Assembly: GCA_044361595.1 (NCBI GenBank)
Contig: JBIKIN010000010.1
Location: 4,112-68,111, forward strand
From: Pelobium sp.
GTDB lineage: Bacteria > Bacteroidota > Bacteroidia > Sphingobacteriales > Sphingobacteriaceae
Reading direction: 5' to 3'
DNA length: 64,000 bases
The first letter of the stretch is position 1; every line of letters starts with the position of its first letter. The translations under genes and the position numbers were made by a program. Positions 7,573 to 27,230 of this stretch are shown here, piece by piece. Below the pieces are notes generated by a model that was given only the letters and a program-made list of their open reading frames with translations, was not told where the DNA came from and did no database searches.

Positions 7573-7935
7573 TTAATTAGTTTGAGGTTCAACATTCTTA
7601 CTATCTACAACCAAAGTAACATGATTAGAACGCTTACGAATTCTATAACCACGACCTTGAGGTGCAGGTCTTAAACGCTTTAATTGACGACCACCATCAA
7701 CCATAATTGTTTTAACAAAAAGTTGTGCGTCTTCAGGGCGTTGACCCTCATTTTTTGATTCCCAATTTTTGATAGCTGATAATAAAAGCTTTTCAACTCT
7801 TATAGCAGCTTCTTTATTGGTATATTTTAATATGTAAAGTGCCTTTTCAACACGCTCACCTCTGATTAAATCTACAACCAGTCTCATTTTACGAGGTGAA
7901 GTTGGGCAATTATTTAATTTTGCTACTGCTTCCAT
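7573..7935 (-). CDS. rplV: 50S ribosomal protein L22
   Basis: [31 protein letters not shown]. Confidence 0.99.
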
Positions 7936-13082: not shown

Positions 13083-14054
13083 TTACTTTTTTCTTTCTGT
13101 AGTATATTTAACCAATTGCTCTAAACTATCTTTTGAAATAGACGGTGGGAAATCTTTAATCAAATCAAAGGCTTTCGCCTGATATTTCATCATCTCACCT
13201 TCTGCATAAGATAAACCACCTTGCTCTTTAACAAATTCTATAATTTGATTTATTTTATCGGGTTTATCTTCGTGATTCTTTACTAAGTTAATAACTCTCT
13301 TTCTTGTAGTCTTATCTACTTTATTTAAAGCATGTATTAGAGGTAGCGTAACTTTTTTCTCTTTAATATCTAAACCTTTTGGCTTTCCTACATCGTCTAA
13401 ACCAAAATCAAACAAATCATCCTTTATTTGAAAGGCTATGCCAATGTTTTCGCCAAATGAATGCATAAGTTGTATTGTTTCCTCATTAGCACCAGCAGAT
13501 GAAGCCCCTGCTGCGCAACAAGATGCAATTAAGGAAGCTGTTTTTTGACGTATAACTTCGTAGTAAACTGCTTCACTAATATCCATGCGTCTTACTTTTT
13601 CTATTTGTAAGAGTTCTCCTTCACTCATTTGCTGTACAGCATCTGAAACAATCTTAAGCAATCTAAACTCTTGATGATCTACTGAAAGTTGTAAGCCCTT
13701 AGAAAGTAAGTAATCGCCTACTAAAACGGCTATTTTATTTTTCCATAAAGCATTAATAGAGAAAAATCCTCTTCTTTCAAAAGAATTATCAACCACGTCA
13801 TCGTGTACTAAAGTTGCTGTATGTAGTAATTCTACCAAAGAAGCGGCTCTGTAAGTAGATTCTGTAATTCCGCCACAAATATTTGCAGCAAAAAAAACAA
13901 ACATAGGTCGCATTTGCTTTCCTTTTCGTTTTACGATATAATGTGTAATTCTGTCTAACAAAGGGACAGAGCTTTGCATAGAAACCTTGAACTTTTCTTC
14001 AAAAGCATCAATTTCTTTTGCTATAGGTTTTTTTATATCGCTAAGCTTTAACAT
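13083..14054 (-). CDS. polyprenyl diphosphate synthase (IspB-like)
   Basis: GKQMRP, LVHDDVVD, FQIKDD, GKP motifs. Confidence 0.95.
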   Translation of the reverse strand: MLKLSDIKKPIAKEIDAFEEKFKVSMQSSVPLLDRITHYIVKRKGKQMRPMFVFFAANICGGITESTYRAASLVELLHTATLVHDDVVDNSFERRGFFSINALWKNKIAVLVGDYLLSKGLQLSVDHQEFRLLKIVSDAVQQMSEGELLQIEKVRRMDISEAVYYEVIRQKTASLIASCCAAGASSAGANEETIQLMHSFGENIGIAFQIKDDLFDFGLDDVGKPKGLDIKEKKVTLPLIHALNKVDKTTRKRVINLVKNHEDKPDKINQIIEFVKEQGGLSYAEGEMMKYQAKAFDLIKDFPPSISKDSLEQLVKYTTERKK

Positions 14055-14088
14055 TGTAAATCAAACAGACGTTTAGCTGTAAGGTTTG

Positions 14089-14096
14089 CAAACATA
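14089..14096 (-). promoter_or_regulatory. -7 promoter element (TATGTTTG) for polyprenyl synthase-terC
   Basis: TAnnTTTG match 35 nt upstream of the ATG. Confidence 0.5.
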
Positions 14097-14181
14097 ATGT
14101 AAAAAGCCGATAATTAGCATCATATTTAAACGTTCTTAGTCTCTAATTATTCAATTTTTATAATTTTACAAAAAAAATAAA

Positions 14182-14733
14182 ATGAAAATAAACTTACTTG
14201 CAGTAATTCCTTTAATTTTTTTAAATGTGAGTGTTATTGCTCAAACCAAAAAACCCTCAAGTGGTAAGCCAACAATTTTTAATAGAACCGAGTTTAGCTA
14301 TACTTTTGGAATAGAGGATGCGCTACCCAATACTTCTATAGACGCATTACATTTAAAAACTGTTGTAGGTTTTACTTTACCACATGTAGGTTTTGGCATA
14401 GGACTAGAAAATGGGAGTTTTAGGGGGGAAAATAACGCTAGATTTAATACTTTAGCCTTTAGCGGGAATTTACACCTGCTTGCAAAACCAAACTACTACG
14501 AAGGAACTAACTACTTTATAAAAGGTGCAATAGGTTATGGATTGGGTGTTTTTAATAATTATGATAAAGGATTAAATTATGAAACTGCTACTGGAGTTAT
14601 GATTACTACCAAAAAAAGGAAAAGGTATTTTATTCAGGCTATTTACCACCAACAAAACATAGATGATTTTTTATTAGCAAACGAAAAGGTAAAAATTAAA
14701 ACTCTAGGTATTGGTTTAGGAACTTGGTTTTAA
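14182..14733 (+). CDS. hypothetical outer-membrane beta-barrel protein
   Basis: Signal peptide, alternating amphipathic strands, C-terminal aromatic (LGIGLGTWF). Confidence 0.7.
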   Translation: MKINLLAVIPLIFLNVSVIAQTKKPSSGKPTIFNRTEFSYTFGIEDALPNTSIDALHLKTVVGFTLPHVGFGIGLENGSFRGENNARFNTLAFSGNLHLLAKPNYYEGTNYFIKGAIGYGLGVFNNYDKGLNYETATGVMITTKKRKRYFIQAIYHQQNIDDFLLANEKVKIKTLGIGLGTWF

Positions 14734-14737
14734 CAAT

Positions 14738-14986
14738 TCAAAGAAAAGCCTCTGGTTTAGTTTCTGCTTTTTTTTTATAAAAATAAACTACAGCGCCTAT
14801 TAGATACAGCCAAGGTAGGTTATGAAATATTAAATCAAAGTAATCTAATAAAAGCATATCATTTGCTCCATCAATTAACCATTTTAACTTCTCGTAAGAA
14901 TGTGGTATTGGATAATAAGGGGTTAAACCTATAGTAACACACAAAAGTAGCGCTAATTTAACATGGTCTGAGGGTTTAAATTTCAT
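14738..14986 (-). CDS. small conserved membrane protein (GLTPYYPIPHSYEKLKWL...DLIFHNLPW)
   Basis: Two hydrophobic segments; overlaps the thioredoxin stop (translational coupling). Confidence 0.7.
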   Translation of the reverse strand: MKFKPSDHVKLALLLCVTIGLTPYYPIPHSYEKLKWLIDGANDMLLLDYFDLIFHNLPWLYLIGAVVYFYKKKAETKPEAFL

Positions 14987-15282
14987 GCCTCTAAATTATG
15001 TATAATTTTTAAAAGTTCGGTTTTAGTTATCATTCCTGATTGTCGCCATTTTTGTTTTCCGTTTTCGAATAATATAAATGTAGGAACTCCCTGCACATTA
15101 TAATTTGTAGCAACTTTTGTGTTTTTATCCACATCAATTTTAATGATAGTTAGTTTATCTCCTAGCTCCTTTTTAAGGTCCTGTAAAATTGGAGACATTG
15201 CTTTGCATGGCCCACACCAAGTGGCAAAAAAATCGATTAATACTTTATTATTTTGATTTATTATTTCGTTAAAATTTGCCAT
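14983..15282 (-). CDS. trxA: thioredoxin (start corrected to MANFNE at 15282, 99 aa)
   Basis: WCGPC active site, VQGVPTF cis-Pro loop. Confidence 0.93.
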   Translation of the reverse strand: MANFNEIINQNNKVLIDFFATWCGPCKAMSPILQDLKKELGDKLTIIKIDVDKNTKVATNYNVQGVPTFILFENGKQKWRQSGMITKTELLKIIHNLEA

Positions 15283-15475
15283 TTCTATCTCCTTTAATGT
15301 AATGATAAGCGTAACGTAAAGCATCAGCATTTAAAGCTAGGTAAACCACAATTACTATTAATAAACCCTTTAATTTACCAAACCTTAATCCTAAAAAAAT
15401 TAAAAATGTTAGCGCAATTAAATGACGGTATAAATAATATTTGGTGGGCTTTAACATCAATAACAAAGCTAGCAA
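15269..15475 (-). CDS. possible small two-TM membrane protein
   Basis: Fills the gap between methyltransferase and thioredoxin; two hydrophobic stretches; TTG start; no recognisable family. Confidence 0.35.
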   Translation of the reverse strand: MLALLLMLKPTKYYLYRHLIALTFLIFLGLRFGKLKGLLIVIVVYLALNADALRYAYHYIKGDRNGKF

Positions 15476-15486
15476 ACTCCCCTAAC

Positions 15487-16086
15487 CTATTTGTCGACTT
15501 TTATGAAATTAATAAAAAGCTCTGAACCTAATCTTGGATTTACTGAATTGTAAGCATTCTCCATTTTATTAATCTCGAATTTATCTTGAAAAAGTGATTG
15601 ATATTCTTCAAGAGTTCCTCCGAACGGAGGACCACTAGAACCAAATTGCTTATTAAACAACAAACCTACTATTTTACCACCTAAAGCTAATAATTGATGC
15701 GTTTTCTCAACATAATTTTGCCTTAAATTAGGGTGAATGGCACAAAAGAAAGTTTGTTCAATAATCAAATCAAAATCACCTTTTAGATTAAAGAAATCAT
15801 TTTGAATAAGACGACAATTTTTAGAATCATAATTTGAGAGTTTTCGAGCTAAATCAGCTAATGGTTTTTCAGCAAAATCAACAACGGTAATATTTGTAAA
15901 ACCTTGTTCTAAAAGATAAATGGCTTCATAAGCATTCCCAGCTCCAGGAATCAAAATCCTTAAATCTTTGTTTATTAACTGATTGATATAGGTTTTTATA
16001 GTCGGAGAAACCTCGCCCAAATCCCATCCAATTTGTTGATTGAGGTACCTATTATTCCAATAATTTTCACTTAAAAAATCTGCCAT
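15487..16086 (-). CDS. TPMT/thiopurine S-methyltransferase-family SAM-dependent methyltransferase
   Basis: GWDLGEVSP, RILIPGAGNAYEA, EQTFFCAI, GPPFG motifs. Confidence 0.9.
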   Translation of the reverse strand: MADFLSENYWNNRYLNQQIGWDLGEVSPTIKTYINQLINKDLRILIPGAGNAYEAIYLLEQGFTNITVVDFAEKPLADLARKLSNYDSKNCRLIQNDFFNLKGDFDLIIEQTFFCAIHPNLRQNYVEKTHQLLALGGKIVGLLFNKQFGSSGPPFGGTLEEYQSLFQDKFEINKMENAYNSVNPRLGSELFINFIKVDK

Positions 16087-16114
16087 TTAACTTTCTTTAG
16101 GATGAAAAATCAAA

Positions 16115-16122
16115 CAAATCTA
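16115..16122 (-). promoter_or_regulatory. -7 promoter element (TAGATTTG) for the methyltransferase-thioredoxin arm
   Basis: TAnnTTTG match 29 nt upstream of the ATG at 16086. Confidence 0.5.
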
Positions 16123-16236
16123 ATTTAAAAAGCTTTTAATCTTTGTAAAATAAGCTTTCTTAAACTTAATCAACAATAAAAATTTATTGTAAGTATATTA
16201 AATCTCGATTCGACTAAAAATCGTAATTTGCATTAA

Positions 16237-16908
16237 ATGAATAAAACCGCAATTATACTTTTTGCTAATTTACCTGAGTTTGAAGCTCGGGCAAAAAGTT
16301 TTTCGGCTTATTCATCACAAAAAGCTACTCAGCAAATTTCTCAGGTTTTAACCCAACATTTTTATCAATTAGCGCAACAAAGTTCTGCCGATTCTTTTTT
16401 AGTTGACACTTATCATCAAAAAGGAAAATCTTTTGGGGAAAGAATTACTAACGCTTTCATTGATATTTATGCAAAGGGTTATGAAAACATTATTTGCATT
16501 GGCAATGATTGTCCGGAGCTTAATTCAAATCAATTGCAAAATGCCATTAACCTTGTAGAACAAGGTAATGTAGTTTTGGGTCCTACCTTAGATGGAGGTG
16601 CCTATTTAATGGGTATACCAAAAAACAAGTTTAACTGTAGCACCTTTTTAAATGTTAAATGGCAAAGCATTAAAACCTATCAAAACTTAAAGCAAGTATT
16701 TAATAATTTTGTAACTGAGTTAAGCTTACAGGTAGATATAGATTCGGTAGAGGATTTAAAAACAAACTACGCTAACAATAGCCTAATAAATGTTTTAAGA
16801 CATTTAATTTTAAGTTTTAAAAATAAATTATCAGACCTATTAAATTTAACTTTAATAGACTTTATTAAGGTAGATCGTTATTCTTTAAAAGCTCCGCCTT
16901 TGGCTTAA
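16237..16908 (+). CDS. DUF2064 / TIGR04282-like CofC-fold transferase with C-terminal KAPP tail
   Basis: QKGKSFGERITNAF, IGNDCPEL, VLGPTLDGGAYLMG, DIDSVEDL; adjacent to ArsS-type genes. Confidence 0.8.
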   Translation: MNKTAIILFANLPEFEARAKSFSAYSSQKATQQISQVLTQHFYQLAQQSSADSFLVDTYHQKGKSFGERITNAFIDIYAKGYENIICIGNDCPELNSNQLQNAINLVEQGNVVLGPTLDGGAYLMGIPKNKFNCSTFLNVKWQSIKTYQNLKQVFNNFVTELSLQVDIDSVEDLKTNYANNSLINVLRHLILSFKNKLSDLLNLTLIDFIKVDRYSLKAPPLA

Positions 16909-16972
16909 AATCTAGCTTTCGATGGCATTTCGCTATCAAAAATCACAAAAATTAAACATTTCAAAAATAACT

Positions 16973-16994
16973 GAGTAGACTTATAAGTCTACTC
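16973..16994. promoter_or_regulatory. perfect 22-bp palindrome GAGTAGACTTATAAGTCTACTC (operator or RNA hairpin)
   Basis: Self-complementary; ends 19 nt before the ATG at 17014; no U-tract. Confidence 0.6.
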
Positions 16995-17013
16995 GTCTAT
17001 ACATATTAATAAC

Positions 17014-17349
17014 ATGGCTAAAAATTACTTTGATCCTGAAGATTTAAAAAAGTTTGGTAAAATAACTGAGTTCCAAAAACCACTAGGAGATAAATTCTTC
17101 GATTATTACAGCGAAGTTTTTAAAGAAGGTGCACTGACTGTAAGAGAAAAATCACTAATTGCTTTAGCGGTTGCCCATGCGGTACAATGTCCTTATTGTA
17201 TTGATGCTTATTCATCAGACTGTATACAAAAAGGTGCCGATGAAGAACAAATGATGGAAGCTGTACACGTTGCAGCAGCAATTAAAAGTGGCTCTACTTT
17301 GGTTTTTGGGGTACAAATGATGAACCATGTTAAAGATACAACGATGTAA
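17014..17349 (+). CDS. AhpD/carboxymuconolactone decarboxylase-like protein, ArsS-associated (TIGR04169-like)
   Basis: REKSLIALAVAHAVQCPYCIDAY (CxxC); immediately upstream of the radical SAM gene. Confidence 0.9.
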   Translation: MAKNYFDPEDLKKFGKITEFQKPLGDKFFDYYSEVFKEGALTVREKSLIALAVAHAVQCPYCIDAYSSDCIQKGADEEQMMEAVHVAAAIKSGSTLVFGVQMMNHVKDTTM

Positions 17350-17351
17350 TT

Positions 17352-18419
17352 ATGGGAGTTAAACAAATTTCAAAATCGTTAAAAGCCCAAGGAAGTATGC
17401 TGGGTGATAATTTTTACCAGCTTAAAGTACTATCTCAAAAAGATATTCAAGATGGTGCTTATGAAAATTTTCATAAGAAACTAAAATCGTTAAATGTAGA
17501 TGCAATAAAAGTTTCCCAATTAGAAATATTTCAGATAAACATAGGAAAACTATGTAACCAAACTTGTTCACATTGCCATGTGGATGCCGGACCTGACAGA
17601 AAAGAAGAGAATATGTCTTTCGAAACTTTAGAAAGATGCCTTTATCTAATAAAAACCTACAATTTTAAAAAGGTTGATATTACGGGTGGTGCACCAGAAA
17701 TGAACGAGCATTTTAGATGGTTTGTAGAAGAATGTACAAAAGCAAACGTAGAAGTAATGGTTAGATGTAATTTAACTATTATTATGGCCAATAAAAAATA
17801 TCATGATTTACCTACGTTTTTTAAAGCCAATAATGTACACGTAATTTCTTCACTACCTTCTTTCTCAGCCATGCGAACAGATGCACAAAGAGGTGACGGA
17901 GTTTTTGAAGATTCTATTGCTGCATTACAAAAACTAAATGCGGTAGGTTATGGTGTTGAAGGATCTGGTTTGGTCATAGATTTAGTTTATAATCCATCTG
18001 GAGCTTATTTACCGGGTGACCAAAATTCTATGGAGGCCGAATTTAAAAGGCAGTTAAAAAGAAAATTTGATATCGTTTTTAATAGTTTGTATGCCATTAC
18101 TAACTTACCCATTAGCAGGTTTCTAGATTATTTACTAGAAACTGGGAAGTACTTAGATTATATGCACCAATTGGTGGATGCCTTTAATCCGGCTACTTTA
18201 GATGGTTTGATGTGTAAAAACACATTAAGTATAAGCTGGGACGGTTACATGTATGATTGTGATTTTAACCAACAGCTTGATTTAAAATTTACAGGTAAAG
18301 CTAAACACATTAATGATTTTGATTTTGAGGAGATTATGAATCGCAAAATCATCATTAACAACCATTGTTACGGATGCACCGCTGGTGCTGGTAGTAGTTG
18401 TGGCGGAGAAATAGCTTAA
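17352..18419 (+). CDS. arsS: ArsS-type radical SAM protein (arsenosugar biosynthesis family, TIGR04167-like, DUF3641 C-terminus)
   Basis: CNQTCSHC (CxxxCxxC), DITGGAPE, CKNTLSISWDGYMYDCDFNQ, C-terminal HCYGCTAGAGSSCGG. Confidence 0.9.
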   Translation: MGVKQISKSLKAQGSMLGDNFYQLKVLSQKDIQDGAYENFHKKLKSLNVDAIKVSQLEIFQINIGKLCNQTCSHCHVDAGPDRKEENMSFETLERCLYLIKTYNFKKVDITGGAPEMNEHFRWFVEECTKANVEVMVRCNLTIIMANKKYHDLPTFFKANNVHVISSLPSFSAMRTDAQRGDGVFEDSIAALQKLNAVGYGVEGSGLVIDLVYNPSGAYLPGDQNSMEAEFKRQLKRKFDIVFNSLYAITNLPISRFLDYLLETGKYLDYMHQLVDAFNPATLDGLMCKNTLSISWDGYMYDCDFNQQLDLKFTGKAKHINDFDFEEIMNRKIIINNHCYGCTAGAGSSCGGEIA

Positions 18420-18458
18420 AAAAAATCAATCAAACAATCTTATTTTATTTAAAGAAAC

Positions 18459-21400
18459 ATGAAATCAATCATCATGATTGCTGTTTCCTGTTTACTTTTA
18501 AATTTTGCTAATGCTCAAAATTTAAAAGTAAAAGGAACAATATTGGACCAAATTTCGGGCGAAAAACTTATTGGCGTAAGCGTAAAAGAAAAGAATAACC
18601 CTAAAAACGGCACTGCATCCAACGCAAACGGCGAGTTTACACTCAATTTATCCTCGTCCAAAACCACATTAATATTTAGTTACATTGGTTATACCACAAA
18701 AGAAGTTATCTTAACAGGAGAAAAAGAGTTAACTATAAAATTAAGCCCTGGCTTGTTACTAAACGAAACCGTAGTAACCGCTTTAGGTGTAGAGCGTGAT
18801 TCAAAAGCCTTAGGCTACAACATTCAACAAGTAAACGCAAAAGAGATAAGTACCGTTAAATCGGTTAATTTCTTAGATAACTTAACTGCAAAAGTTGCTG
18901 GCGTTACCATCACACAAGGAGCTAGCGGTGTAGGTTCTACCTCAAAAATTGTAATTAGAGGCGAAAGTTCTTTTGCGAATAATAACCCTCTATTTGTTGT
19001 AGATGGTATCCCGATTAATAACAATTCGATTATCCCGAGAACAGTAGAAACACCTTCCAGCTTCCAAGCTATTGATTTTGGAAACGGTGCTATGGATGTA
19101 AATCCTGATGATATTGCATCAGTTTCTGTACTAAAAGGTGCAGCAGCAGCGGCATTATATGGAAACAGAGCCGCTAACGGGGTTATTTTGATTAACACCA
19201 AAGATGGAAGCGATAGCAAAGGCTTCGGAGTAAGCTTTAACTCTTCAACAACTGTAGAAAGTCCGTTTAAATTACCAGAATTTCAAAATCTTTACGGACA
19301 AGGAAATGGTGGTCAATTTGCTTTTAAAGATGGTTTAGGAGGTGGAGTGAACGATGTTTTAACCTATTCTTGGGGGCCAAGATTAGATCAAGGAACTTTA
19401 ATTGCTCAATATGATAGTCCGGTTATTTTACCTGATGGTAGAGTTTTACGCGGTGGAGACGTAGCTGCTTACATCGGAAACACCATTACTCCTACTCCCT
19501 TTATTTCACATCCAGATAATTTGAAGAATTTCTTTGAAACAGGCCAAACTTATATAAATAACCTAGCCTTTAGTGGTAAATATGATAAAGGAAATTATCG
19601 TTTATCCTACACCGATTTAAAGAGTGAATCAATTTTGCCAGGGAGTAATTATTTAAGAAAAAACGTATCGGCAAATTTCAATTTCAAACCGTCTGATAAA
19701 CTAAATTTTAGATCAACAATCATTTATCAAAATGCAAAAAGTGATAACAGACCATCAAGTGGTTATGGTTCAGAAAACCTGCAATATGGATTAGTTGCTT
19801 GGTTGCCTCGTTCTTTGGATATCGAGCCTTTAAAAAATTATTGGCAAACTGGTTCAACCAATTTAAACAACTACTCTTACAATTATTCATTTTTCGATAA
19901 TCCATATTTCATCTTAAAAGAGAATAGGAATGAGTTAAACAGAGATCGAATTTTTGGAAATATTGCTCTTAAATATGATTTAGCTGATAACCTTTTTGTG
20001 CAGATTAGAAGCGGAATGGATTATAGTAATGATGCTAGAAGATTGTTAAGACATTACAGCACAAACAGATTTAAATCTGGTGCTTATGGCGAACACGATG
20101 TGTTTTTCAGAGAAATCAACTCAGATGTTTTATTAAATTATACCAAGAAAGTAAACGATTTCGGCTTTGATATTTCTTTTGGTGGGAACCAAATGAACCA
20201 AAACTTTAAGAGCGACCAAACACAAACTTCCGCTTTAGCGCAACCTGCTTTATTTACTTTAGCAAATGCAGCTACACCCTTAGAAATCTTCACTTTTTCT
20301 AGCAGAAAAAGAATAAATAGTGCTTATGGCTCAGCAAAATTGAGCTTTAAAAACTATTTATTTGTAGATATCACAGGTAGAAATGATTGGTCAAGTGCTT
20401 TAGCAACTCCGCAAAGTACAGCAAACACTTCTTTCTTTTATCCATCTGTCTCTACCAGTTTAGTCATTTCAGAATTGGTAAAAATACCTAAAGTATCCTT
20501 TGCTAAATTGAGAGCGAGTTATGCTCAAATTGGTAACGATACAGATCCTTATCAAACTGCCGGAATTTTTAATCCAGCAACACCATTTAACAGCGCTCCT
20601 ACACTAACCGATCAAAATAGTATTGCCAATCCTAATTTATTGCCCGAGCAAACCAGTTCTATTGAATTAGGAGCTGATGTTCGGTTTTTTCAAGATCGAC
20701 TGGGAATCGATTTTACTTATTACAACTCTTTAACAGAGAACCAAATTCTTTCTTTACCAGTTTCTAACGCTACAGGATACAGCCAAAGGGTGACCAATGG
20801 AGGTTCTGTGCGTTCTAAAGGTTTAGAGATTATTTTAAACACCACACCAGTTTTAACTAATAATTTTTCTTGGAATGCTAATTTCAACTTTAGTAGAAAT
20901 GTAGCAACCGTAGAATCTTTACCAGAAGGTGCCAAAAGATTGACTTTGGCTTACGCCCGAGTTTATGACAGCCCAAATCAGTCCGTATATTACATTGTTG
21001 AAGAAGGCGGTAGAATTGGAAGTTTATGGGGAACTGGCTACCTAAAAAATAGCGAAGGCAAATTTATTTTAAACAGTGGCGGTAATTTAATTGCTGATAA
21101 TACTTTGAAAAATTTGGGTAATTACAACCCTGATTTTATGCTTGGTTTTAACAACAGCTTTAGGTACAAGCAATTTGATTTTGGGTTTTTATTTGATTGG
21201 CGCCAAGGCGGAATTTTAATATCTAGAACTTTGGCATTAGCCGGAGTAGGTGGTCAATTAAAAGAAACTGAAAACCGTCCAGCTGAAGGATTAATATTTG
21301 ACGGCGTAATTAATACTGGAACTGCAGCAAACCCAGTTTATGTTGAAAATACAATCGCTATCTCTCCAGAAAGTTATTACCGCCAATTTTATGATCGTAA

Positions 21401-21680
21401 CCACGAAGAAAACAATACATACGATGCTTCCTACCTAAAAATGAGACAGTTTAATGTGGGTTATACTTTCAGTAAGGTCACTTTAGCTAAAACTTTCTTA
21501 AGAAATGTACAAAGTTTAAAGCTATCATTTATTGGTAGAAACTTATTTGCACAATCAGAAATCCCACATTTTGACCCAGAGCAAATGGCTTTACAAGGAA
21601 ATAGATTTTTAAACGGAGTGGAGGACATGTCGTACCCAACTACCAGAAGTTTTGGATTAAGCTTAGGTCTTAACTTTTAA
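18459..21680 (+). CDS. SusC/RagA-family TonB-dependent transporter
   Basis: N-terminal carboxypeptidase-like domain, plug NNPLFVVDGIP and VLKGAAAAALYGNRAANGVILI, C-terminal F. Confidence 0.97.
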   Translation: MKSIIMIAVSCLLLNFANAQNLKVKGTILDQISGEKLIGVSVKEKNNPKNGTASNANGEFTLNLSSSKTTLIFSYIGYTTKEVILTGEKELTIKLSPGLLLNETVVTALGVERDSKALGYNIQQVNAKEISTVKSVNFLDNLTAKVAGVTITQGASGVGSTSKIVIRGESSFANNNPLFVVDGIPINNNSIIPRTVETPSSFQAIDFGNGAMDVNPDDIASVSVLKGAAAAALYGNRAANGVILINTKDGSDSKGFGVSFNSSTTVESPFKLPEFQNLYGQGNGGQFAFKDGLGGGVNDVLTYSWGPRLDQGTLIAQYDSPVILPDGRVLRGGDVAAYIGNTITPTPFISHPDNLKNFFETGQTYINNLAFSGKYDKGNYRLSYTDLKSESILPGSNYLRKNVSANFNFKPSDKLNFRSTIIYQNAKSDNRPSSGYGSENLQYGLVAWLPRSLDIEPLKNYWQTGSTNLNNYSYNYSFFDNPYFILKENRNELNRDRIFGNIALKYDLADNLFVQIRSGMDYSNDARRLLRHYSTNRFKSGAYGEHDVFFREINSDVLLNYTKKVNDFGFDISFGGNQMNQNFKSDQTQTSALAQPALFTLANAATPLEIFTFSSRKRINSAYGSAKLSFKNYLFVDITGRNDWSSALATPQSTANTSFFYPSVSTSLVISELVKIPKVSFAKLRASYAQIGNDTDPYQTAGIFNPATPFNSAPTLTDQNSIANPNLLPEQTSSIELGADVRFFQDRLGIDFTYYNSLTENQILSLPVSNATGYSQRVTNGGSVRSKGLEIILNTTPVLTNNFSWNANFNFSRNVATVESLPEGAKRLTLAYARVYDSPNQSVYYIVEEGGRIGSLWGTGYLKNSEGKFILNSGGNLIADNTLKNLGNYNPDFMLGFNNSFRYKQFDFGFLFDWRQGGILISRTLALAGVGGQLKETENRPAEGLIFDGVINTGTAANPVYVENTIAISPESYYRQFYDRNHEENNTYDASYLKMRQFNVGYTFSKVTLAKTFLRNVQSLKLSFIGRNLFAQSEIPHFDPEQMALQGNRFLNGVEDMSYPTTRSFGLSLGLNF

Positions 21681-23128
21681 TGAAACATATCATGAGAAAA
21701 TATATCATCATATTTATCGCAATTTTAGGTTTATCAGCCTGTACCAAAGATTTAAGCGATATCAATACCAATCCAAACGCACCAATTGATGCACAACCAT
21801 CATTATTATTCAGAAAAGTTTTGTTTGATTATGGCGAACAAATGTCTTTCGAAGGTTTTGATGCTGGAAATTTATTAGGTCAGTATTTTACCATGACGGA
21901 TTTTAACAATTTCGACCGTCATGCTTTAGCAGAACCGTTATACGCTGGAAACCCTTGGCCAATCCTTTATAGAAATTTGAGAGACAATGAAATCGTGTTA
22001 AATAAAGCGAACGAAAGCCCGGTTTTCTCGGTTTACAAAGGCCCAGCTTTGGTGATGAAGGCTTATATGACTGCGGCTTTAACAGATCTTTACGGCGATG
22101 TACCTTACAGCGAAGCCTTAAAAGGTAAAACTGAAATTTTTACTCCAAAATATGACAAACAAGAGGATATCTATAATGGTGCAAACGGCATTCTTAAAAA
22201 CTTAGAAAATGCCGTTATCGCAATGGAGGCCTATAACGGAACTACTAGATTAGAGGGCGATATCGTTTATAACGGAAACTTACAAAATTGGGCACGCTTC
22301 GCAAACTCATTAAGAATCAAACTCTTAATGAGGATATCTGATAAAGTAAATGTTGCATCACAATTGCAAGCACTTTTTGCAGGTGGAAAATATATCACTA
22401 ACAATACGCAGAACGCAATTTTTAGGTTTTCGGCAACCCCACCAAATAACTTTAGAATTACAACTGCCCGTATAGGAGATTATAACTTATACATCATGTC
22501 TAAAACAGCTGAAGAAATTCTGAAAAATTTCAACGACCCCAGAATTTCTTTATTTTACCGCCCGACAACGGCAAATCCTGCTAATTTTGTCGGCTTGCAA
22601 AACGGTCCAGATGCTTCGGTTACCCCAGTAACTTTAGCAAATAATAGTTTGACAGGAAGAATTTTTAGAGAAGACGGTGTGAATTTAAAATACAATTACA
22701 GCACAGCTTGGGAAACCAATTTCTTTTTAGCAGAAGCAGCTCAAAAAGGTTTGATCTCTACATCGGCGAAAGCCTTATATGATTTGGCTGTTGCACAAGG
22801 TTTTGAATACTGGAATGTAACGATGCCAGCTAACTATTTAACTACAGGTCCTGCTTTGTTTAATCCGGCTTCGCCTGATGCTTTAAAATTAATCATCACT
22901 CAAAAATGGATTCCAAATACGATTAATGGTTATGAAGGCTGGATTGAATATAGAAGAACCGGTTTCCCAGAGTTAAAACCAGTTTTAGCGAGTAGAAATA
23001 ATGGAATTTATCCGGTGCGGATGCCTTATCCACAAGAAGAGGCCACTTTAAACGGAGATAATTATCAAGCCGCAGCAGCAAAAACAAATAACAATAGTAT
23101 AAACGCTAAAGTATGGTGGGATAACTAA
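21680..23128 (+). CDS. SusD/RagB-family lipoprotein (alternative start 21692)
   Basis: LGLSA-C lipobox then INTNPN; LTDLYGDVPYSEAL; GWIEYRRTGFP; RMPYP; follows SusC. Confidence 0.95.
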   Translation: MKHIMRKYIIIFIAILGLSACTKDLSDINTNPNAPIDAQPSLLFRKVLFDYGEQMSFEGFDAGNLLGQYFTMTDFNNFDRHALAEPLYAGNPWPILYRNLRDNEIVLNKANESPVFSVYKGPALVMKAYMTAALTDLYGDVPYSEALKGKTEIFTPKYDKQEDIYNGANGILKNLENAVIAMEAYNGTTRLEGDIVYNGNLQNWARFANSLRIKLLMRISDKVNVASQLQALFAGGKYITNNTQNAIFRFSATPPNNFRITTARIGDYNLYIMSKTAEEILKNFNDPRISLFYRPTTANPANFVGLQNGPDASVTPVTLANNSLTGRIFREDGVNLKYNYSTAWETNFFLAEAAQKGLISTSAKALYDLAVAQGFEYWNVTMPANYLTTGPALFNPASPDALKLIITQKWIPNTINGYEGWIEYRRTGFPELKPVLASRNNGIYPVRMPYPQEEATLNGDNYQAAAAKTNNNSINAKVWWDN

Positions 23129-24498
23129 TGAGCTTAAACACCGTTTCCTACCTGCAATGGGGGTTTATTTTACTTTCAAGTATTTTAATTTTTTGGCTGG
23201 CGCCGATAGCGAAAACCACTCAAGACTTTTTCTACGGAAGTAAAGACAATAAACAACCCAATGCCATCCTATTAACTAGCAGTTTGGTAATTAGCTGGAT
23301 TTTTGCAAAATCTATCACCAATGTGGCTAATTTAGGATTAAGTTTTGGCGTGGTAGGTGTGGTTTCCTACTCCATTTATTACCTTTCTTTTTTGGTAGCT
23401 GGATTAGTAATTTATAAAATGAGGCTAAATGGTGGATTTAAAAGTATCCACCATTTTATTGGCTCAAAATATGGGAAAGGAGCACTTTATCTGTTTTCTA
23501 TATTAATTGCTTTTAGGTTATTTAACGAGGTTTGGTCTAACACATTAGTCATTGGTTCATACTTTGGCGATGTAGGTTCTACACCCTATTACGCTTCTAT
23601 CATTGTATTTACTTTGCTCACTTTGGCTTATGCTTTAAAAGGCGGCATGAGTACTTCTATTTTAACAGATGTCATCCAGATGGTTCTGTTTGGAGTTTTA
23701 CTTACCTCAATCTTACTCTACATTTTACCAGAGATGAAAGGGGATTTTAAACCTCTTTATCAATCAGGTACGTGGAGTATGGCAACGGGTGGGAACTTAG
23801 TTTTAGTGGCTTTATTACAATGTTTTAGCTATCCTTTTCATGATCCAGTTTTAACCGACAGAGGTTTTATCACTTCTCCAAAAACCACATTAAGATCTTT
23901 TATTTGGGCTAGTGTCATAGGTGTTATCTGTATTGCTTTGTTTGGAATAGTAGGGATTTTTGCTCAAACCAAAGGTTTTACTGGCCAAGCAACTGTTGAA
24001 GTGGCTAAATTTTTTGGGCCAGTCATGTTGCTCATCATGAATTTCATTATGGTAACTTCAGCAGCATCAACTTTAGATTCGGCTTTTTCATCCTTTTCAA
24101 AACTATACAATATCGATATTTTTCCTAATCGAGAATTGAAAATCAGTAAAGGTAGAATAGCGATGGTTGTGTTGACCATTTTAGGAACTGTCCCTATATT
24201 TTTTAAGCCCGAGATACTTTCAGCAACAACCATTAGCGGTACAATGGTCATTGGTTTAGCTCCAGTTTTCTTATTTTGGAATACTAACACCCCGAAATTT
24301 TCATTTTTTGCTCCGGTAATTTTTGGTTTGCTAATGGGTTTATGCATCACTTTTGAAATGGCACCAAAAGCCTGGATTTTTACCGATGGAAAATACAATG
24401 ATTTGTTAGGAGTAAATCTTTGGGGAAGTTTAATTTGTTTCATACTATTTTTTATTCCTTTGCTTAATCAGAAATGGAAAAAAACATCAAATATTTAG
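23128..24498 (+). CDS. sodium:solute symporter (SSS) family transporter
   Basis: Multi-TM; YALKGGMSTSILTDVIQ and SAASTLDSAF motifs. Confidence 0.88.
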   Translation: MSLNTVSYLQWGFILLSSILIFWLAPIAKTTQDFFYGSKDNKQPNAILLTSSLVISWIFAKSITNVANLGLSFGVVGVVSYSIYYLSFLVAGLVIYKMRLNGGFKSIHHFIGSKYGKGALYLFSILIAFRLFNEVWSNTLVIGSYFGDVGSTPYYASIIVFTLLTLAYALKGGMSTSILTDVIQMVLFGVLLTSILLYILPEMKGDFKPLYQSGTWSMATGGNLVLVALLQCFSYPFHDPVLTDRGFITSPKTTLRSFIWASVIGVICIALFGIVGIFAQTKGFTGQATVEVAKFFGPVMLLIMNFIMVTSAASTLDSAFSSFSKLYNIDIFPNRELKISKGRIAMVVLTILGTVPIFFKPEILSATTISGTMVIGLAPVFLFWNTNTPKFSFFAPVIFGLLMGLCITFEMAPKAWIFTDGKYNDLLGVNLWGSLICFILFFIPLLNQKWKKTSNI

Positions 24499-25298
24499 GC
24501 GAATTAAAAGGAAAAGTGCTTGTTTTTGGTGGAGTTTATTCTAATCTACAAGCCCTAGAATCTATTAAAAATTTGGCTTTCGCCGATGGAATATCACCAG
24601 AAAACATCATATGTACCGGAGATATTGTTGCCTATTGCGCTCAACCTAAAGAGTGTATAAAACTGATTAGAGATTGGGGAATCCATTGCATTGCAGGTAA
24701 TGTAGAATTAAACTTGGTAAACGATATAGATGACTGCGGTTGCAATTTTGAAGACGGCAGCAGGTGCGATGTTTTCTCTCGCCAATGGTATCCCTATTTA
24801 AAAAGTCAAGTGAACCAAGATGATATAGATTGGCTGGCAACCATTCCCGAGTTTCTTTCTTTTGCTTACGCCGATAAAAAAATTGCCTGTTTACATGGCT
24901 CCTATTTCGATACATCAGAGTTTATTTTCAAATCAACCGATTGGAGTGCAAAGCAAAAGAATTTTGATGCGCTTAACGCTGATGTGATTTTAGCAGGTCA
25001 TTGCGGTTTGCCTTTTTCACATATAAATGAAGATAAAATTTGGATTAATGCAGGAGTTATCGGAATGCCTGCAAATGATGGAACACCAGGAGTTTGGTAT
25101 GCCATTTTAAACGATTCCAAAGGCTTTAATTTTGAAATAAAAGCTCTAGAATACGATTTCGAAAAAGCTGCAGACTTAATGAATGACAAGCCTTTACCTC
25201 AAACTTATCAAAAAACATTAAAAACAGGTATTTGGGATAACTGTGAGATTCTACCTGAGGTAGAAACAGGTTTACAGAGGCAAAAAATTTCGTTTTAA
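24474..25298 (+). CDS. calcineurin-like metallophosphoesterase-family protein with altered metal ligands
   Basis: TGD, GN, HGS, GH and INAGVIG motifs in the expected order; motif I is GGVYSN instead of DxHxN. Confidence 0.8.
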   Translation: MEKNIKYLGELKGKVLVFGGVYSNLQALESIKNLAFADGISPENIICTGDIVAYCAQPKECIKLIRDWGIHCIAGNVELNLVNDIDDCGCNFEDGSRCDVFSRQWYPYLKSQVNQDDIDWLATIPEFLSFAYADKKIACLHGSYFDTSEFIFKSTDWSAKQKNFDALNADVILAGHCGLPFSHINEDKIWINAGVIGMPANDGTPGVWYAILNDSKGFNFEIKALEYDFEKAADLMNDKPLPQTYQKTLKTGIWDNCEILPEVETGLQRQKISF

Positions 25299-25800
25299 TT
25301 CCCTAAACTGTGCTTGGTCTAAAGCATAGCGTGACAAAGGATAAATCAATCAAATAGAGTTTTTATACTCGGTTTAAAAATTGCAAAATCACAAATGTTG
25401 ATTAAGTCAAAAGTCAATAAAATAAAAATCATTTAATGCTTAACTGCTATTAAATCCAATCTAAGACTCTTTGTAATTTACTTAGCCTTAGAAACCCCTG
25501 CGCTAAACTATACAGACGCTAGCCTCTATAGCCCTATAAAATTAGATTCTCATTCTAGCTTTTCCATTAATAATGGAATCATATCCTTCTATTTTCTACT
25601 TCCTTCTCCCACTTTTTTTAAAAAATACTGCTCGTTTAAACAAATTTTCCCACTTACACATTTTTAGGCATAAAAACACTCAATTTCAAAGCCTTAGCTT
25701 TAATAATTATATTCGATAATGGTCAATATAAACAACCTTGTTAATCCAAAATCTATTTTAACGACCCCAAAAAAGCATTTTAAGACTGTTGAAAACTTTT

Positions 25801-25830
25801 TGTGGTAAAAAGTGGTAAAAAGTGGTAACA
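25801..25830 (+). promoter_or_regulatory. MraZ-binding boxes (three GTGGT repeats at 10-nt pitch)
   Basis: tGTGGTaaaa aGTGGTaaaa aGTGGTaaca, 40 nt upstream of mraZ. Confidence 0.85.
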
Positions 25831-25870
25831 TTCTTTAATTTTACACTTAATAAAACCAAAAAAAATTTAA

Positions 25871-26335
25871 ATGTCCCAGTTAATTGGAGAGTTTGATTGC
25901 AAATTAGATGCTAAAGGCCGCTTAATGGTTCCTTCCGGCCTAAAAAAGCAATTGCCTGCAGTTGATGCTGAGGGACTTATTATTCACCGTGGTTTTGAAA
26001 AGCATTTAACCATTTACGCCAAAGTCGAGTGGGATAAGATTACATCAGAACTTGCTCAGCTTAATCAATATGAGAAAAAAACTAGAGAATTTATTAGGTA
26101 TTTTACTCGTGGCGCAACGGAGTTAAGTCTAGATGCTTCCGGCAGGGTATTACTACCTAAAGCATTATTAGAATATGCTGGTATTAAAAGTGAAGTAGTG
26201 CTTTCTTGCCAGTTTAGCAAGATTGAAGTTTGGGATAAAAACACTTACGATACCCAATTAGATAACGAACCTGAAAATTTCGCAAACCTAGCAGAAGAAG
26301 TAATGGGCAGTTTAGGAAGGAGGAAGGATGACTAA
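25871..26335 (+). CDS. mraZ: division/cell wall cluster transcriptional repressor MraZ
   Basis: KLDAKGRLMVP and LDASGRVLLP repeats. Confidence 0.98.
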   Translation: MSQLIGEFDCKLDAKGRLMVPSGLKKQLPAVDAEGLIIHRGFEKHLTIYAKVEWDKITSELAQLNQYEKKTREFIRYFTRGATELSLDASGRVLLPKALLEYAGIKSEVVLSCQFSKIEVWDKNTYDTQLDNEPENFANLAEEVMGSLGRRKDD

Positions 26336-27230
26336 ATACCATACTCCCGTTATGCTGCAAGAATGTATAGATGCTTTAGCGATAAAAGCTAACGGCACTT
26401 ACGTGGATGTTACTTTTGGTGGGGGCGGCCATTCTAAAGAAATTATTAAAAACCTGAGCGAAGATGGTATTTTGATAGCTTTTGATCAAGATCAAGATGC
26501 TAAAGAAAATATCATTAATGATGAACGTTTCATCTTTATCGATCAAAACTTCAGATTCCTTAAAAATAATCTTAGAGCACATGATGTGCTTCCTGTTGAT
26601 GGCATTCTTGCCGATTTGGGCGTTTCTTCTCATCAGTTTGATGTTCCAGAAAGAGGTTTCTCTACTCGCTTTGATGGTGATTTGGACATGAGAATGGACC
26701 AAGATGGCGAGTTGACCGCTCAAAAAGTGGTGAATACTTATAGCGAAGACCAATTGCATAAAATATTTGGCATTTATGGCGAAATACAAAACGCTAAAAC
26801 TTTAGCCAAAACCATTATTACAGCTCGTTTAAACGCAGCTATAGTAACCATATCCGATTTAAAAAGTGCTATTAATCATCTTATCCCAAAAGGAAAAGAA
26901 AATAAATATTTAGCGCAAGTTTTTCAGGCTTTGAGGATAGAAGTTAACCAAGAAATGGAAAGCTTAAAGGAGTTTTTAAATCAAACTATAGATGTTTTAG
27001 CCCCAGGAGGACGATTGGTGGTAATGTCTTATCATTCATTAGAAGATCGTTTGGTGAAAAATTTTTTGGCCAAAGGAAAATTCAGCGGTATGGTAGAAAA
27101 AGATTTTTTTGGAAACGAGATAAAGCCTTTTGATTTAGTAGTTAAGAAATCAATTACGGCATCAGAAGAAGAGATTAAGTTAAATAATAGGGCAAGAAGT
27201 GCAAGGTTAAGAATAGCTATTAAGAGATGA
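26328..27230 (+). CDS. rsmH: 16S rRNA m4C1402 methyltransferase
   Basis: YHTPVML, DVTFGGGGHS, DLGVSSHQFD, FQALRIEVN, SYHSLEDR. Confidence 0.98.
   Translation: MTKYHTPVMLQECIDALAIKANGTYVDVTFGGGGHSKEIIKNLSEDGILIAFDQDQDAKENIINDERFIFIDQNFRFLKNNLRAHDVLPVDGILADLGVSSHQFDVPERGFSTRFDGDLDMRMDQDGELTAQKVVNTYSEDQLHKIFGIYGEIQNAKTLAKTIITARLNAAIVTISDLKSAINHLIPKGKENKYLAQVFQALRIEVNQEMESLKEFLNQTIDVLAPGGRLVVMSYHSLEDRLVKNFLAKGKFSGMVEKDFFGNEIKPFDLVVKKSITASEEEIKLNNRARSARLRIAIKR

Follow-up and report, generated by a model that had tools for sequence, protein, structure and literature searches.

An arsenosugar-type ArsS cassette of Pelobium sp. joined to a putative arsenical uptake and reduction module

In a 64,000-nt stretch of Pelobium sp. 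DNA (GenBank assembly GCA_044361595.1, contig JBIKIN010000010.1, positions 4112-68111; C52:4112-68111 in our numbering of the 4.0-Mb, 70-contig assembly G000), hereafter called the window, seven genes at positions 16237-25298 bring together the radical SAM enzyme ArsS and proteins for transport across both membranes. The locus is best explained as an arsenosugar-type ArsS cassette (DUF2064, AhpD-like protein, ArsS) with what appears to be a dedicated uptake-and-reduction module. This module, also called the quartet below, comprises SusC, SusD, a permease of the sodium:solute symporter (SSS) type and a metallophosphoesterase-fold protein (MPE). To the more specific proposal that these proteins form a dedicated route, which would import a pentavalent arsenical, reduce it to As(III) and pass it to ArsS, we give an even chance. 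The ArsS cassette and the arsenate reductase Car1 are known; what appears to be new is the combination of an arsenosugar cassette with genes of putative uptake and reduction. A full-text library search found no paper that joins arsenosugar genes to SusC/TonB-dependent uptake or describes the module.

Organization of the locus

The seven genes are all encoded on the plus strand and tightly packed, as an earlier note on this DNA had described, including the exact overlaps it reported. They are, with scores in bits:

16237-16908, plus strand: DUF2064/CofC-like nucleotidyltransferase-fold protein, divergent TIGR04282 paralogue (Pfam DUF2064, 71.7)
17014-17349, plus strand: AhpD-like CxxC protein (CPYC) of the arsenosugar-associated peroxidase-like family (TIGR04169, 177.6 vs. 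cut-off 120; Pfam CMD)
17352-18419, plus strand: ArsS radical SAM enzyme (TIGR04167, 429.7 vs. cut-off 300; PF04055 Radical_SAM and PF12345 DUF3641)
18459-21680, plus strand: SusC-type TonB-dependent outer-membrane transporter (TIGR04056, 621 vs. cut-off 368; SusC signature, 57)
21680-23128, plus strand: SusD-like outer-membrane lipoprotein with lipobox LSAC (SusD-like_2, 285.7)
23128-24498, plus strand: divergent permease of the sodium:solute symporter superfamily, 456 aa (SSF, 22.4 vs. gathering score 22.8)
24474-25298, plus strand: cytoplasmic Car1-like MPE (Metallophos_2, 31.5; motifs altered)

The first four genes are separated by 105, 2 and 39 nt; the remaining junctions overlap, by 1 nt at 21680, 1 nt at 23128 and 25 nt at 24474-24498, with the MPE gene starting 25 nt inside the permease gene. 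Between ArsS and MPE the gaps range from +39 to -25 nt. Judged by this spacing, the seven genes are probably co-transcribed.

The family calls of the earlier note were confirmed by hidden Markov models for the AhpD-like protein, ArsS and SusC, which exceed curated cut-offs; DUF2064 and the permease are divergent and remain below theirs. The DUF2064 protein scores 92.5 bits on TIGR04282 (cut-off 134), compared to 212 bits for a true member in the related locus L095, and the permease 32 bits on TIGR00813 (cut-off 184). By these scores both are assigned at the superfamily level only. In a tree, this DUF2064 protein belongs to a Sphingobacteriaceae-only clade that is always found upstream of AhpD-ArsS, irrespective of the presence of SusC/SusD. 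The idea that it represents the DUF2064 type adjacent to SusC in other loci was rejected, given its tree clade tied to AhpD-ArsS.

The AhpD-like protein combines its above-cut-off score with a CPYC motif and a 2-nt gap to arsS. Where several ArsS enzymes had been claimed for the operon, there is one, and it is the single above-cut-off copy in the genome. It carries the cluster motif CX3CX2C as C68-NQT-C72-SH-C75 and a C-terminal cysteine-rich tail in the DUF3641 domain (HCYGCTAGAGSSCGG). SusC has a signal peptide, a CarboxypepD_reg domain and a plug, and qualifies as one half of a SusC/SusD pair by its subfamily model, the adjoining SusD-like lipoprotein and the 1-nt overlap between their genes. 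The permease sequence alone had no match in the PDB; the SLC5 family was reached by the profile of its orthologues, with the choline transporter SLC5A7 (E = 5e-9) before SGLT1/2 (E ~1e-4), and many orthologues carry a precomputed PF00474 match. NCBIfam has no model for SusD, nor for the MPE of the variant locus L100 described below, and gives for the permease and the window MPE superfamily-level matches far under cut-off. The names of the orthologues in the source records are generic.

Conservation of the module with ArsS

The linkage of the quartet to ArsS was approached from three sides. A survey centred on ArsS covered 80 species loci found through this enzyme; open reading frames (ORFs) in the surveyed loci were called by a simple script and counted by BLAST against a fixed reference set, by which divergent or broken genes may be missed. 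AhpD adjoins ArsS in 70 of these loci. The quartet follows ArsS completely in L012, L013, L015, L016, L019 and L022 and in part in L014 and L018, which are loci of Pedobacter and Pelobium relatives, and is absent after ArsS in L017, L021 and L023. Four Saprospiraceae loci (L037, L043, L058, L063) hold the quartet with ArsS in different gene orders. In L013, L019 and L022, ArsM and a second DUF2064 gene lie between ArsS and SusC; at this place the window and L016 have neither ArsM nor the SusC-adjacent DUF2064 paralogue. In L020, from a metagenome-assembled Sphingobacteriales genome, the last 70 residues of MPE alone are encoded (7661-7870), 43 nt after arsS. This is the scar of a clean deletion that removed SusC, SusD, the permease and the 5' portion of the MPE gene. 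The remnant directly after ArsS shows that the arrangement of the window is ancestral in the clade.

The second survey was centred on the permease and thus blind to ArsS. The permease has relatives in at least 592 species genomes, from which the 80 best loci were analyzed. A complete quartet is present in 69 of these 80, and in 60 of the 69 (87%) AhpD-ArsS lies within 10 kb. Over the surveys together, this linkage extends to at least four families, Sphingobacteriaceae, Spirosomataceae, Flavobacteriaceae and Saprospiraceae, and bears out the co-conservation of SusC/SusD and the permease with arsS that had been proposed as a check. Two gene orders prevail: ArsS-(DUF2064)-SusC-SusD-SSS-MPE in 41 and SusC..MPE-AhpD-ArsS in 19 of the 69 quartet loci, while the remaining nine have no ArsS nearby, several of them being on truncated contigs. 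The taxa include Winogradskyella, Polaribacter, Maribacter, Algibacter, Tamlana, Dokdonia, Emticicia, Lacihabitans, Neolewinella and uncultured Saprospiraceae. Between families, SusC orthologues are 55-62% identical and always stand beside SusD-SSS-MPE; for SusD the identity is 50-60%.

Finally, a stratified sample of 401 Bacteroidota genomes includes 149 with ArsS (37%) and seven with an MPE orthologue (at least 48% identity), which was also found in four more genomes of a class-level sample. All 11 genomes with an MPE orthologue have ArsS; the hypergeometric probability for seven out of seven is 9e-4, a rough value as the genomes are related. The module lies at most 8 kb from ArsS in five of the 11; in the remaining six it is found at another site as a unit of five genes, DUF2064-SusC-SusD-SSS-MPE. 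This makes the module an accessory of the ArsS system, never occurring without ArsS in the stratified samples and missing from most ArsS genomes.

These data bear on the simplest alternative, an ordinary SusC/SusD nutrient locus that came to lie beside an ArsS cassette by chance, without functional link. SusC/SusD pairs are indeed numerous in Bacteroidota genomes, including this one, and most ArsS loci have none nearby. Yet the linkage persists over at least four families and three gene orders, ArsS accompanies every sampled module orthologue, and no carbohydrate-active enzyme is found in or beside the window quartet or in those orthologous loci of which the neighbours have Pfam assignments (in the wider survey, the fixed reference set alone was searched). 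Chance adjacency is contradicted by the surveys; we consider it highly improbable and have rejected it.

Fuller clusters and variants in relatives

Several relatives encode a more complete pathway around the module. In genome G187 (L095), 14 genes on one strand read AhpD, ArsS, DUF2064, SusC, SusD, SSS, MPE, followed by DUF2064, purine nucleoside phosphorylase (PNP), ArsM, an unknown protein, a fatty-acid-hydroxylase-family protein, DUF547 and a GT2 glycosyltransferase. The ArsM of this cluster is of the dedicated arsenosugar type (NF038099, 564 bits). Of its two DUF2064 proteins, the second is the true TIGR04282 member mentioned above and the SusC-adjacent copy scores 94 bits. Of the 69 quartet loci, 34 include PNP, 26 the TIGR04283 glycosyltransferase and 13 ArsM. 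The cluster of Polaribacter batillariae consists of the L095 core and a rhodanese. In the public record of this genome (CP071795) no gene is called for the SusC orthologue, which is split over two ORFs (L101, 3912-7195), as might result from a frameshift in a pseudogene or from an error in sequencing. When the 80 permease loci (L115-L194) were clustered de novo, two recurrent partners emerged: a rhodanese of 164 aa with a signal peptide and the active-site loop CSVGIR directly after MPE in 27 loci (e.g., L170, 12185-12679), and the fatty-acid-hydroxylase-family membrane protein in 22. The rhodanese is absent from the window, which is a minimal version of the cluster. An AraC-type and a TetR-like gene are present in some of the orthologous loci.

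Two variants deviate in the outer-membrane part. In L100 (G265:C91:1-12000), from another class, an OprO/P-type phosphate-selective porin replaces SusC/SusD in a set of genes for a FadL-like protein, DUF2064, the porin, the permease, a radical SAM protein and MPE. The permease and MPE are 56 and 37% identical to those of the window, respectively. The radical SAM protein (301 aa) is not ArsS (TIGR04167, 59 bits), and the MPE retains FGGVYSN but reads GNYDH and DDCAC at its other motifs. In L157 the permease and MPE lie between ArsS and PNP, without SusC/SusD.

The pathway partners that are missing from the window cluster are scattered over the Pelobium genome, as follows (contigs in our numbering):

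C32:36346-39738: canonical ars operon with ArsR, ArsM, GNAT, ACR3 and an LMW-PTP-type ArsC
C32:36771-37637: ArsM of this operon, 288 aa
C60:105085-105792: TIGR04283 glycosyltransferase (221 bits vs. cut-off 182), divergent from a DUF547 gene
C12:158097-158702: second DUF2064 protein, 201 aa, grouping in the tree with true TIGR04282 members

A PNP is also encoded elsewhere in the genome, whereas the genome has no dedicated arsenosugar-type ArsM (NF038099). The window itself indeed contains no ArsM or GT2 gene, as had been noted. The conclusion then drawn, import rather than de novo synthesis of arsenosugars, does not hold: ArsM, a TIGR04282-type DUF2064, TIGR04283, DUF547 and PNP are all available in the genome, and most relatives carry PNP, DUF2064, DUF547, GT2 and sometimes ArsM beside the importer. 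Nor does any finding point to a sulfur or selenium analogue or to degradation, the other options that had been raised.

The Car1-like metallophosphoesterase-fold protein

The last protein of the module is a metallophosphoesterase fold with a modified metal site. Its AlphaFold model has a pLDDT of 93, and the protein has no signal peptide. Compared to the solved homologue 3rqz, motif I has changed from SDVHAN to FGGVYSN and motif III from GNHD to GNVE, so that Asp and His of motif I are replaced by Gly and Tyr and His of motif III by Val. The Asp of motif II, the Asn of motif III and two later His residues are retained. A Cys88-Gly-Cys90 pair is present, of which both cysteines are invariant in 19 of 19 relatives, and the orthologues also conserve FGGVYSN, GNVE, C47, C55 and C98 (alignment A2). 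The nearest solved folds (3rqz; the Ap4A hydrolase SapH, 3qfm; 1nnw/2gju) are uncharacterized or Ap4A-hydrolase-type phosphoesterases.

The functional connection comes from ars operons. A paper on arsenic methylators (PMC12124457) likens an ars-operon metallophosphoesterase to Car1, the As(V) reductase of Rufibacter tibetensis, with Cys74 and Cys76 as its essential residues (Shen et al., 2024, cited therein). Weaker homologues of the window MPE were found in seven genomes within ArsR-ArsM-ACR3-MPE or ArsR-ACR3-MPE operons. These proteins keep the canonical motifs SDIHAN and GNYD and read DDC74GC76AYK, the numbering of the pair matching that of the essential Car1 residues. The window MPE aligns with an ars-operon MPE over its full length (30% identity, E = 1e-32) with CGC on CGC. 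Because of this alignment and the conserved pair, we read MPE as a probable Car1-derived thiol reductase with a remodelled metal site. The 'altered phosphoesterase' of the earlier note being a paralogue of ars-operon Car1-type arsenate reductases, the arsenic reading of the locus is strengthened.

Compared to Car1 as described there, the window MPE shares fold, subfamily and the CGC pair (C88/C90), but lacks the metal-ligand motifs (DxH, GNH/GNY-D), has additional conserved cysteines (C47, C55, C98, C177) and is encoded in an operon with SusC/SusD and a permease rather than with ArsR and ACR3; its activity is predicted. A Car1-type paralogue is not present in the Pelobium genome. In some ars operons, a second MPE paralogue with canonical metal motifs and without CGC pair directly follows the Car1-type one (L105, 5990-6727; L106; L109).

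Proposed route and cargo

ArsS acts on trivalent dimethylarsenic (PMC13598754, PMC12159101), and adenosylation of DMAs(III) with S-adenosylmethionine (SAM) has been demonstrated for ArsS of Synechocystis only (PMC13598754). Building on this established chemistry and on the arsenate reductase activity reported for Car1, we propose a route in five steps. The SusD lipoprotein and the TonB-dependent SusC would take up a pentavalent arsenical from outside the cell into the periplasm, from where the divergent SSS-type permease would move it into the cytoplasm. There, the translationally coupled Car1-like protein would reduce As(V) to As(III) via Cys88-Gly-Cys90 and would probably be recycled by thioredoxin. 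ArsS would then adenosylate the trivalent dimethylarsenical with SAM to 5'-deoxy-5'-dimethylarsinoyl-adenosine. Finally, PNP, the second DUF2064, DUF547 and the TIGR04283 glycosyltransferase, encoded elsewhere in this genome and within the module cluster in relatives, could convert this product toward an arsenoriboside.

As cargo, an already methylated compound, e.g., dimethylarsinate, is favoured over inorganic arsenate, since the window cluster has no ArsM and three polar metal or catalytic ligands of MPE have changed to Gly, Tyr and Val. We lean to a small methylated As(V) oxyanion because importer families and a reductase-type enzyme precede an enzyme that uses As(III), and because the phosphate-selective porin of L100 takes the place of SusC/SusD and L157 does without the pair. 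In addition, across the 30 sampled genomes of the class that have ArsS, the module and the NF038099-type ArsM are negatively associated (counts 1, 6, 16, 7; one-sided Fisher p = 0.015), in keeping with import as another way to obtain methylated arsenic.

A number of points weigh against this interpretation. The ArsM statistic is small, drawn from 30 related genomes, and takes no account of other types of ArsM, e.g., that beside ArsS in L013 and that of the canonical ars operon of this genome. Most ArsS-positive Bacteroidota do without the module (149 ArsS genomes against seven with the module in one sample). SusC/SusD pairs usually import glycans or other larger ligands, and an oxyanion of 138 Da would be out of the ordinary for them. 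Among solved structures, the permease comes closest to carriers of choline and glucose, which are uninformative on arsenic. The link to Car1 is made through a citing paper, matching residue numbers and the ars-operon context. Moreover, MPE is devoid of ligands that Car1-type proteins keep, so that it may catalyse something other than arsenate reduction or be inactive. Finally, alga-associated marine flavobacteria are the group in which the module occurs most often, and for them oxo-arsenosugars are the obvious arsenicals.

The last point leads to a different cargo. The module might import intact oxo-arsenosugars or related arsenoribosides and nucleosides that algae and cyanobacteria release, to be salvaged or remodelled in the cytoplasm. 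In that case ArsS would handle the freed dimethylarsenic, and the riboside would have its dimethylarsinoyl group reduced by the Car1-like protein. SusC/SusD pairs and SLC5-type permeases are typically carriers of glycosides. The Flavobacteriaceae concerned (Polaribacter, Winogradskyella, Maribacter, Algibacter, Tamlana) are associated with macroalgae, and PNP, DUF2064 and GT2 of the module clusters could rebuild a riboside. On the other hand, the module conserves no glycoside hydrolase or phosphorylase specific to such a cargo, the window organism belongs to the Pedobacter/Pelobium group of soil, freshwater or cold habitats, and both the L100 porin and the L157 arrangement fit a small anion better. 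As ArsS would also be left without a clear role, we regard this option as rather unlikely.

The cargo could likewise be free of arsenic, being a co-substrate or acceptor of the pathway (polyol, nucleoside, phosphate ester) or a sulfur, selenium or phosphorus analogue, with a non-redox role for MPE. None of the transport proteins has a characterized relative, the matches in NCBIfam are as poor as described, and the function of the ArsS family has been demonstrated solely in a cyanobacterium (PMC13598754, PMC12159101). The Ap4A-hydrolase-type phosphodiesterases among the nearest folds of MPE, and the genes for a TPMT-family methyltransferase and a thioredoxin directly upstream of the cluster, could be taken in the same direction. 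However, the nearest functional relatives of MPE are ars-operon proteins, and it has kept the CGC pair while the phosphoesterase ligands are gone. The arsenosugar-type ArsM (NF038099) occurs in 13 of the 69 clusters, and in L111 an ars operon lies 4 kb from an unlinked module. The TPMT gene is part of a neighbouring BigR-like sulfur operon in relatives and is not conserved with the module outside the Pedobacter group. An arsenic-free cargo seems about as improbable to us as imported arsenoribosides. Import of a pentavalent arsenical remains the reading we prefer, with a methylated oxyanion as its favoured form.

To our knowledge, the known bacterial arsenic genes expel or detoxify arsenic. Uptake of arsenic by bacteria is considered accidental, via phosphate, glycerol or sugar carriers. 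A conserved operon that joins importer families, a relative of arsenate reductases and ArsS suggests purposeful acquisition of arsenicals. The module supplies candidates for an organoarsenical importer and a methylarsenate reductase, while PNP, the two DUF2064 types, DUF547 and GT2 are candidates for the later steps of arsenosugar synthesis. As alga-associated marine flavobacteria often carry the module, it may be relevant to the cycling of arsenosugars and dimethylarsenic in the sea and in soils. More tentatively, and with less confidence than we have in the route itself, many Bacteroidota could purposely scavenge environmental arsenicals by a dedicated high-affinity pathway of SusC/SusD, a new SSS-type permease and a Car1-derived reductase of methylated As(V), to supply ArsS for the production of arsenoribosides or arsenolipids. 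If true, the module would be the first dedicated importer of an arsenic compound, and it would be evidence that arsenic metabolites are physiologically useful in heterotrophic bacteria beyond being products of detoxification.

Comparison with known systems

The cyanobacterial arsenosugar pathway (ArsM and ArsS of Synechocystis; cassette TIGR04167/04169/04282/04283) is the closest counterpart of the first three genes. ArsS and the AhpD-like protein of the window exceed the equivalog cut-offs of its families, a DUF2064 relative is part of the cluster, and a TIGR04282-type DUF2064, TIGR04283, PNP and ArsM are found elsewhere in the genome. Unlike that cassette, the window cluster lacks ArsM and GT2, its DUF2064 is a below-cut-off paralogue, and four genes of putative import and reduction directly follow arsS.

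The quartet resembles a polysaccharide utilization locus in the canonical order and overlap of its SusC and SusD genes, the lipoprotein nature of SusD and the TonB dependence of SusC. It differs in that neither the window cluster nor its flanks encode a glycoside hydrolase, lyase or other carbohydrate-active enzyme or a dedicated regulator (hybrid two-component, ECF or anti-sigma), SusC lacks an STN domain, and the pair is accompanied by a permease and a redox-type enzyme. The module orthologues are also unusually conserved, with 50-62% identity between families. With canonical ars operons (ArsR-ArsM-ACR3-ArsC/Car1), the module would share arsenic handling and the type of reductase. Those operons serve the export of arsenic; the module has importer families only, and its link is to a radical SAM enzyme of biosynthesis.

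Flanking genes and regulatory signals

Both flanks are unrelated to the cluster. Upstream, genes for a TPMT-family methyltransferase, thioredoxin, polyprenyl synthase and TerC are divergent from it; downstream, the division cluster mraZ-mraW-ftsL-PBP begins after 572 nt. The features at issue are:

14983-15330, minus strand: thioredoxin, divergent from the cluster
15487-16086, minus strand: TPMT-family methyltransferase (PF05724, 91.8 bits)
16973-16994: perfect 9-bp inverted repeat with a 4-nt loop, GAGTAGACTTATAAGTCTACTC, from the terminator scan, about 20 nt before the start codon of the AhpD-like gene
25802-25829: three direct repeats with a 10-nt period, GTGGTAAAAA GTGGTAAAAA GTGGTAAC, about 42 nt upstream of mraZ (25871)

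The upstream TPMT gene was considered as a stand-in for ArsM and rejected as unsupported. In relatives it sits within the sulfur operon of ArsR/BigR-like, TauE, MBL-rhodanese and YeeE genes; the BigR-like sulfur operon of this genome is located on a separate contig (C68:15461-21916).

No Bacteroidota -7 box (TAnnTTTG) was found in the intergenic gaps, including that between ArsS and SusC, and Rfam gave no match within 14000-27000. Counts of sigma-70 promoters and terminators equal those of shuffled sequence, and such promoter models do not apply to Bacteroidota. Ten relatives differ in sequence at the inverted repeat, most of them still forming a hairpin at the same position, and its stem appears to covary. 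Read on the minus strand, the repeat is preceded by an A-rich and followed by a T-rich stretch, and no minus-strand gene ends there. The direct repeats before the division cluster look like an MraZ operator.

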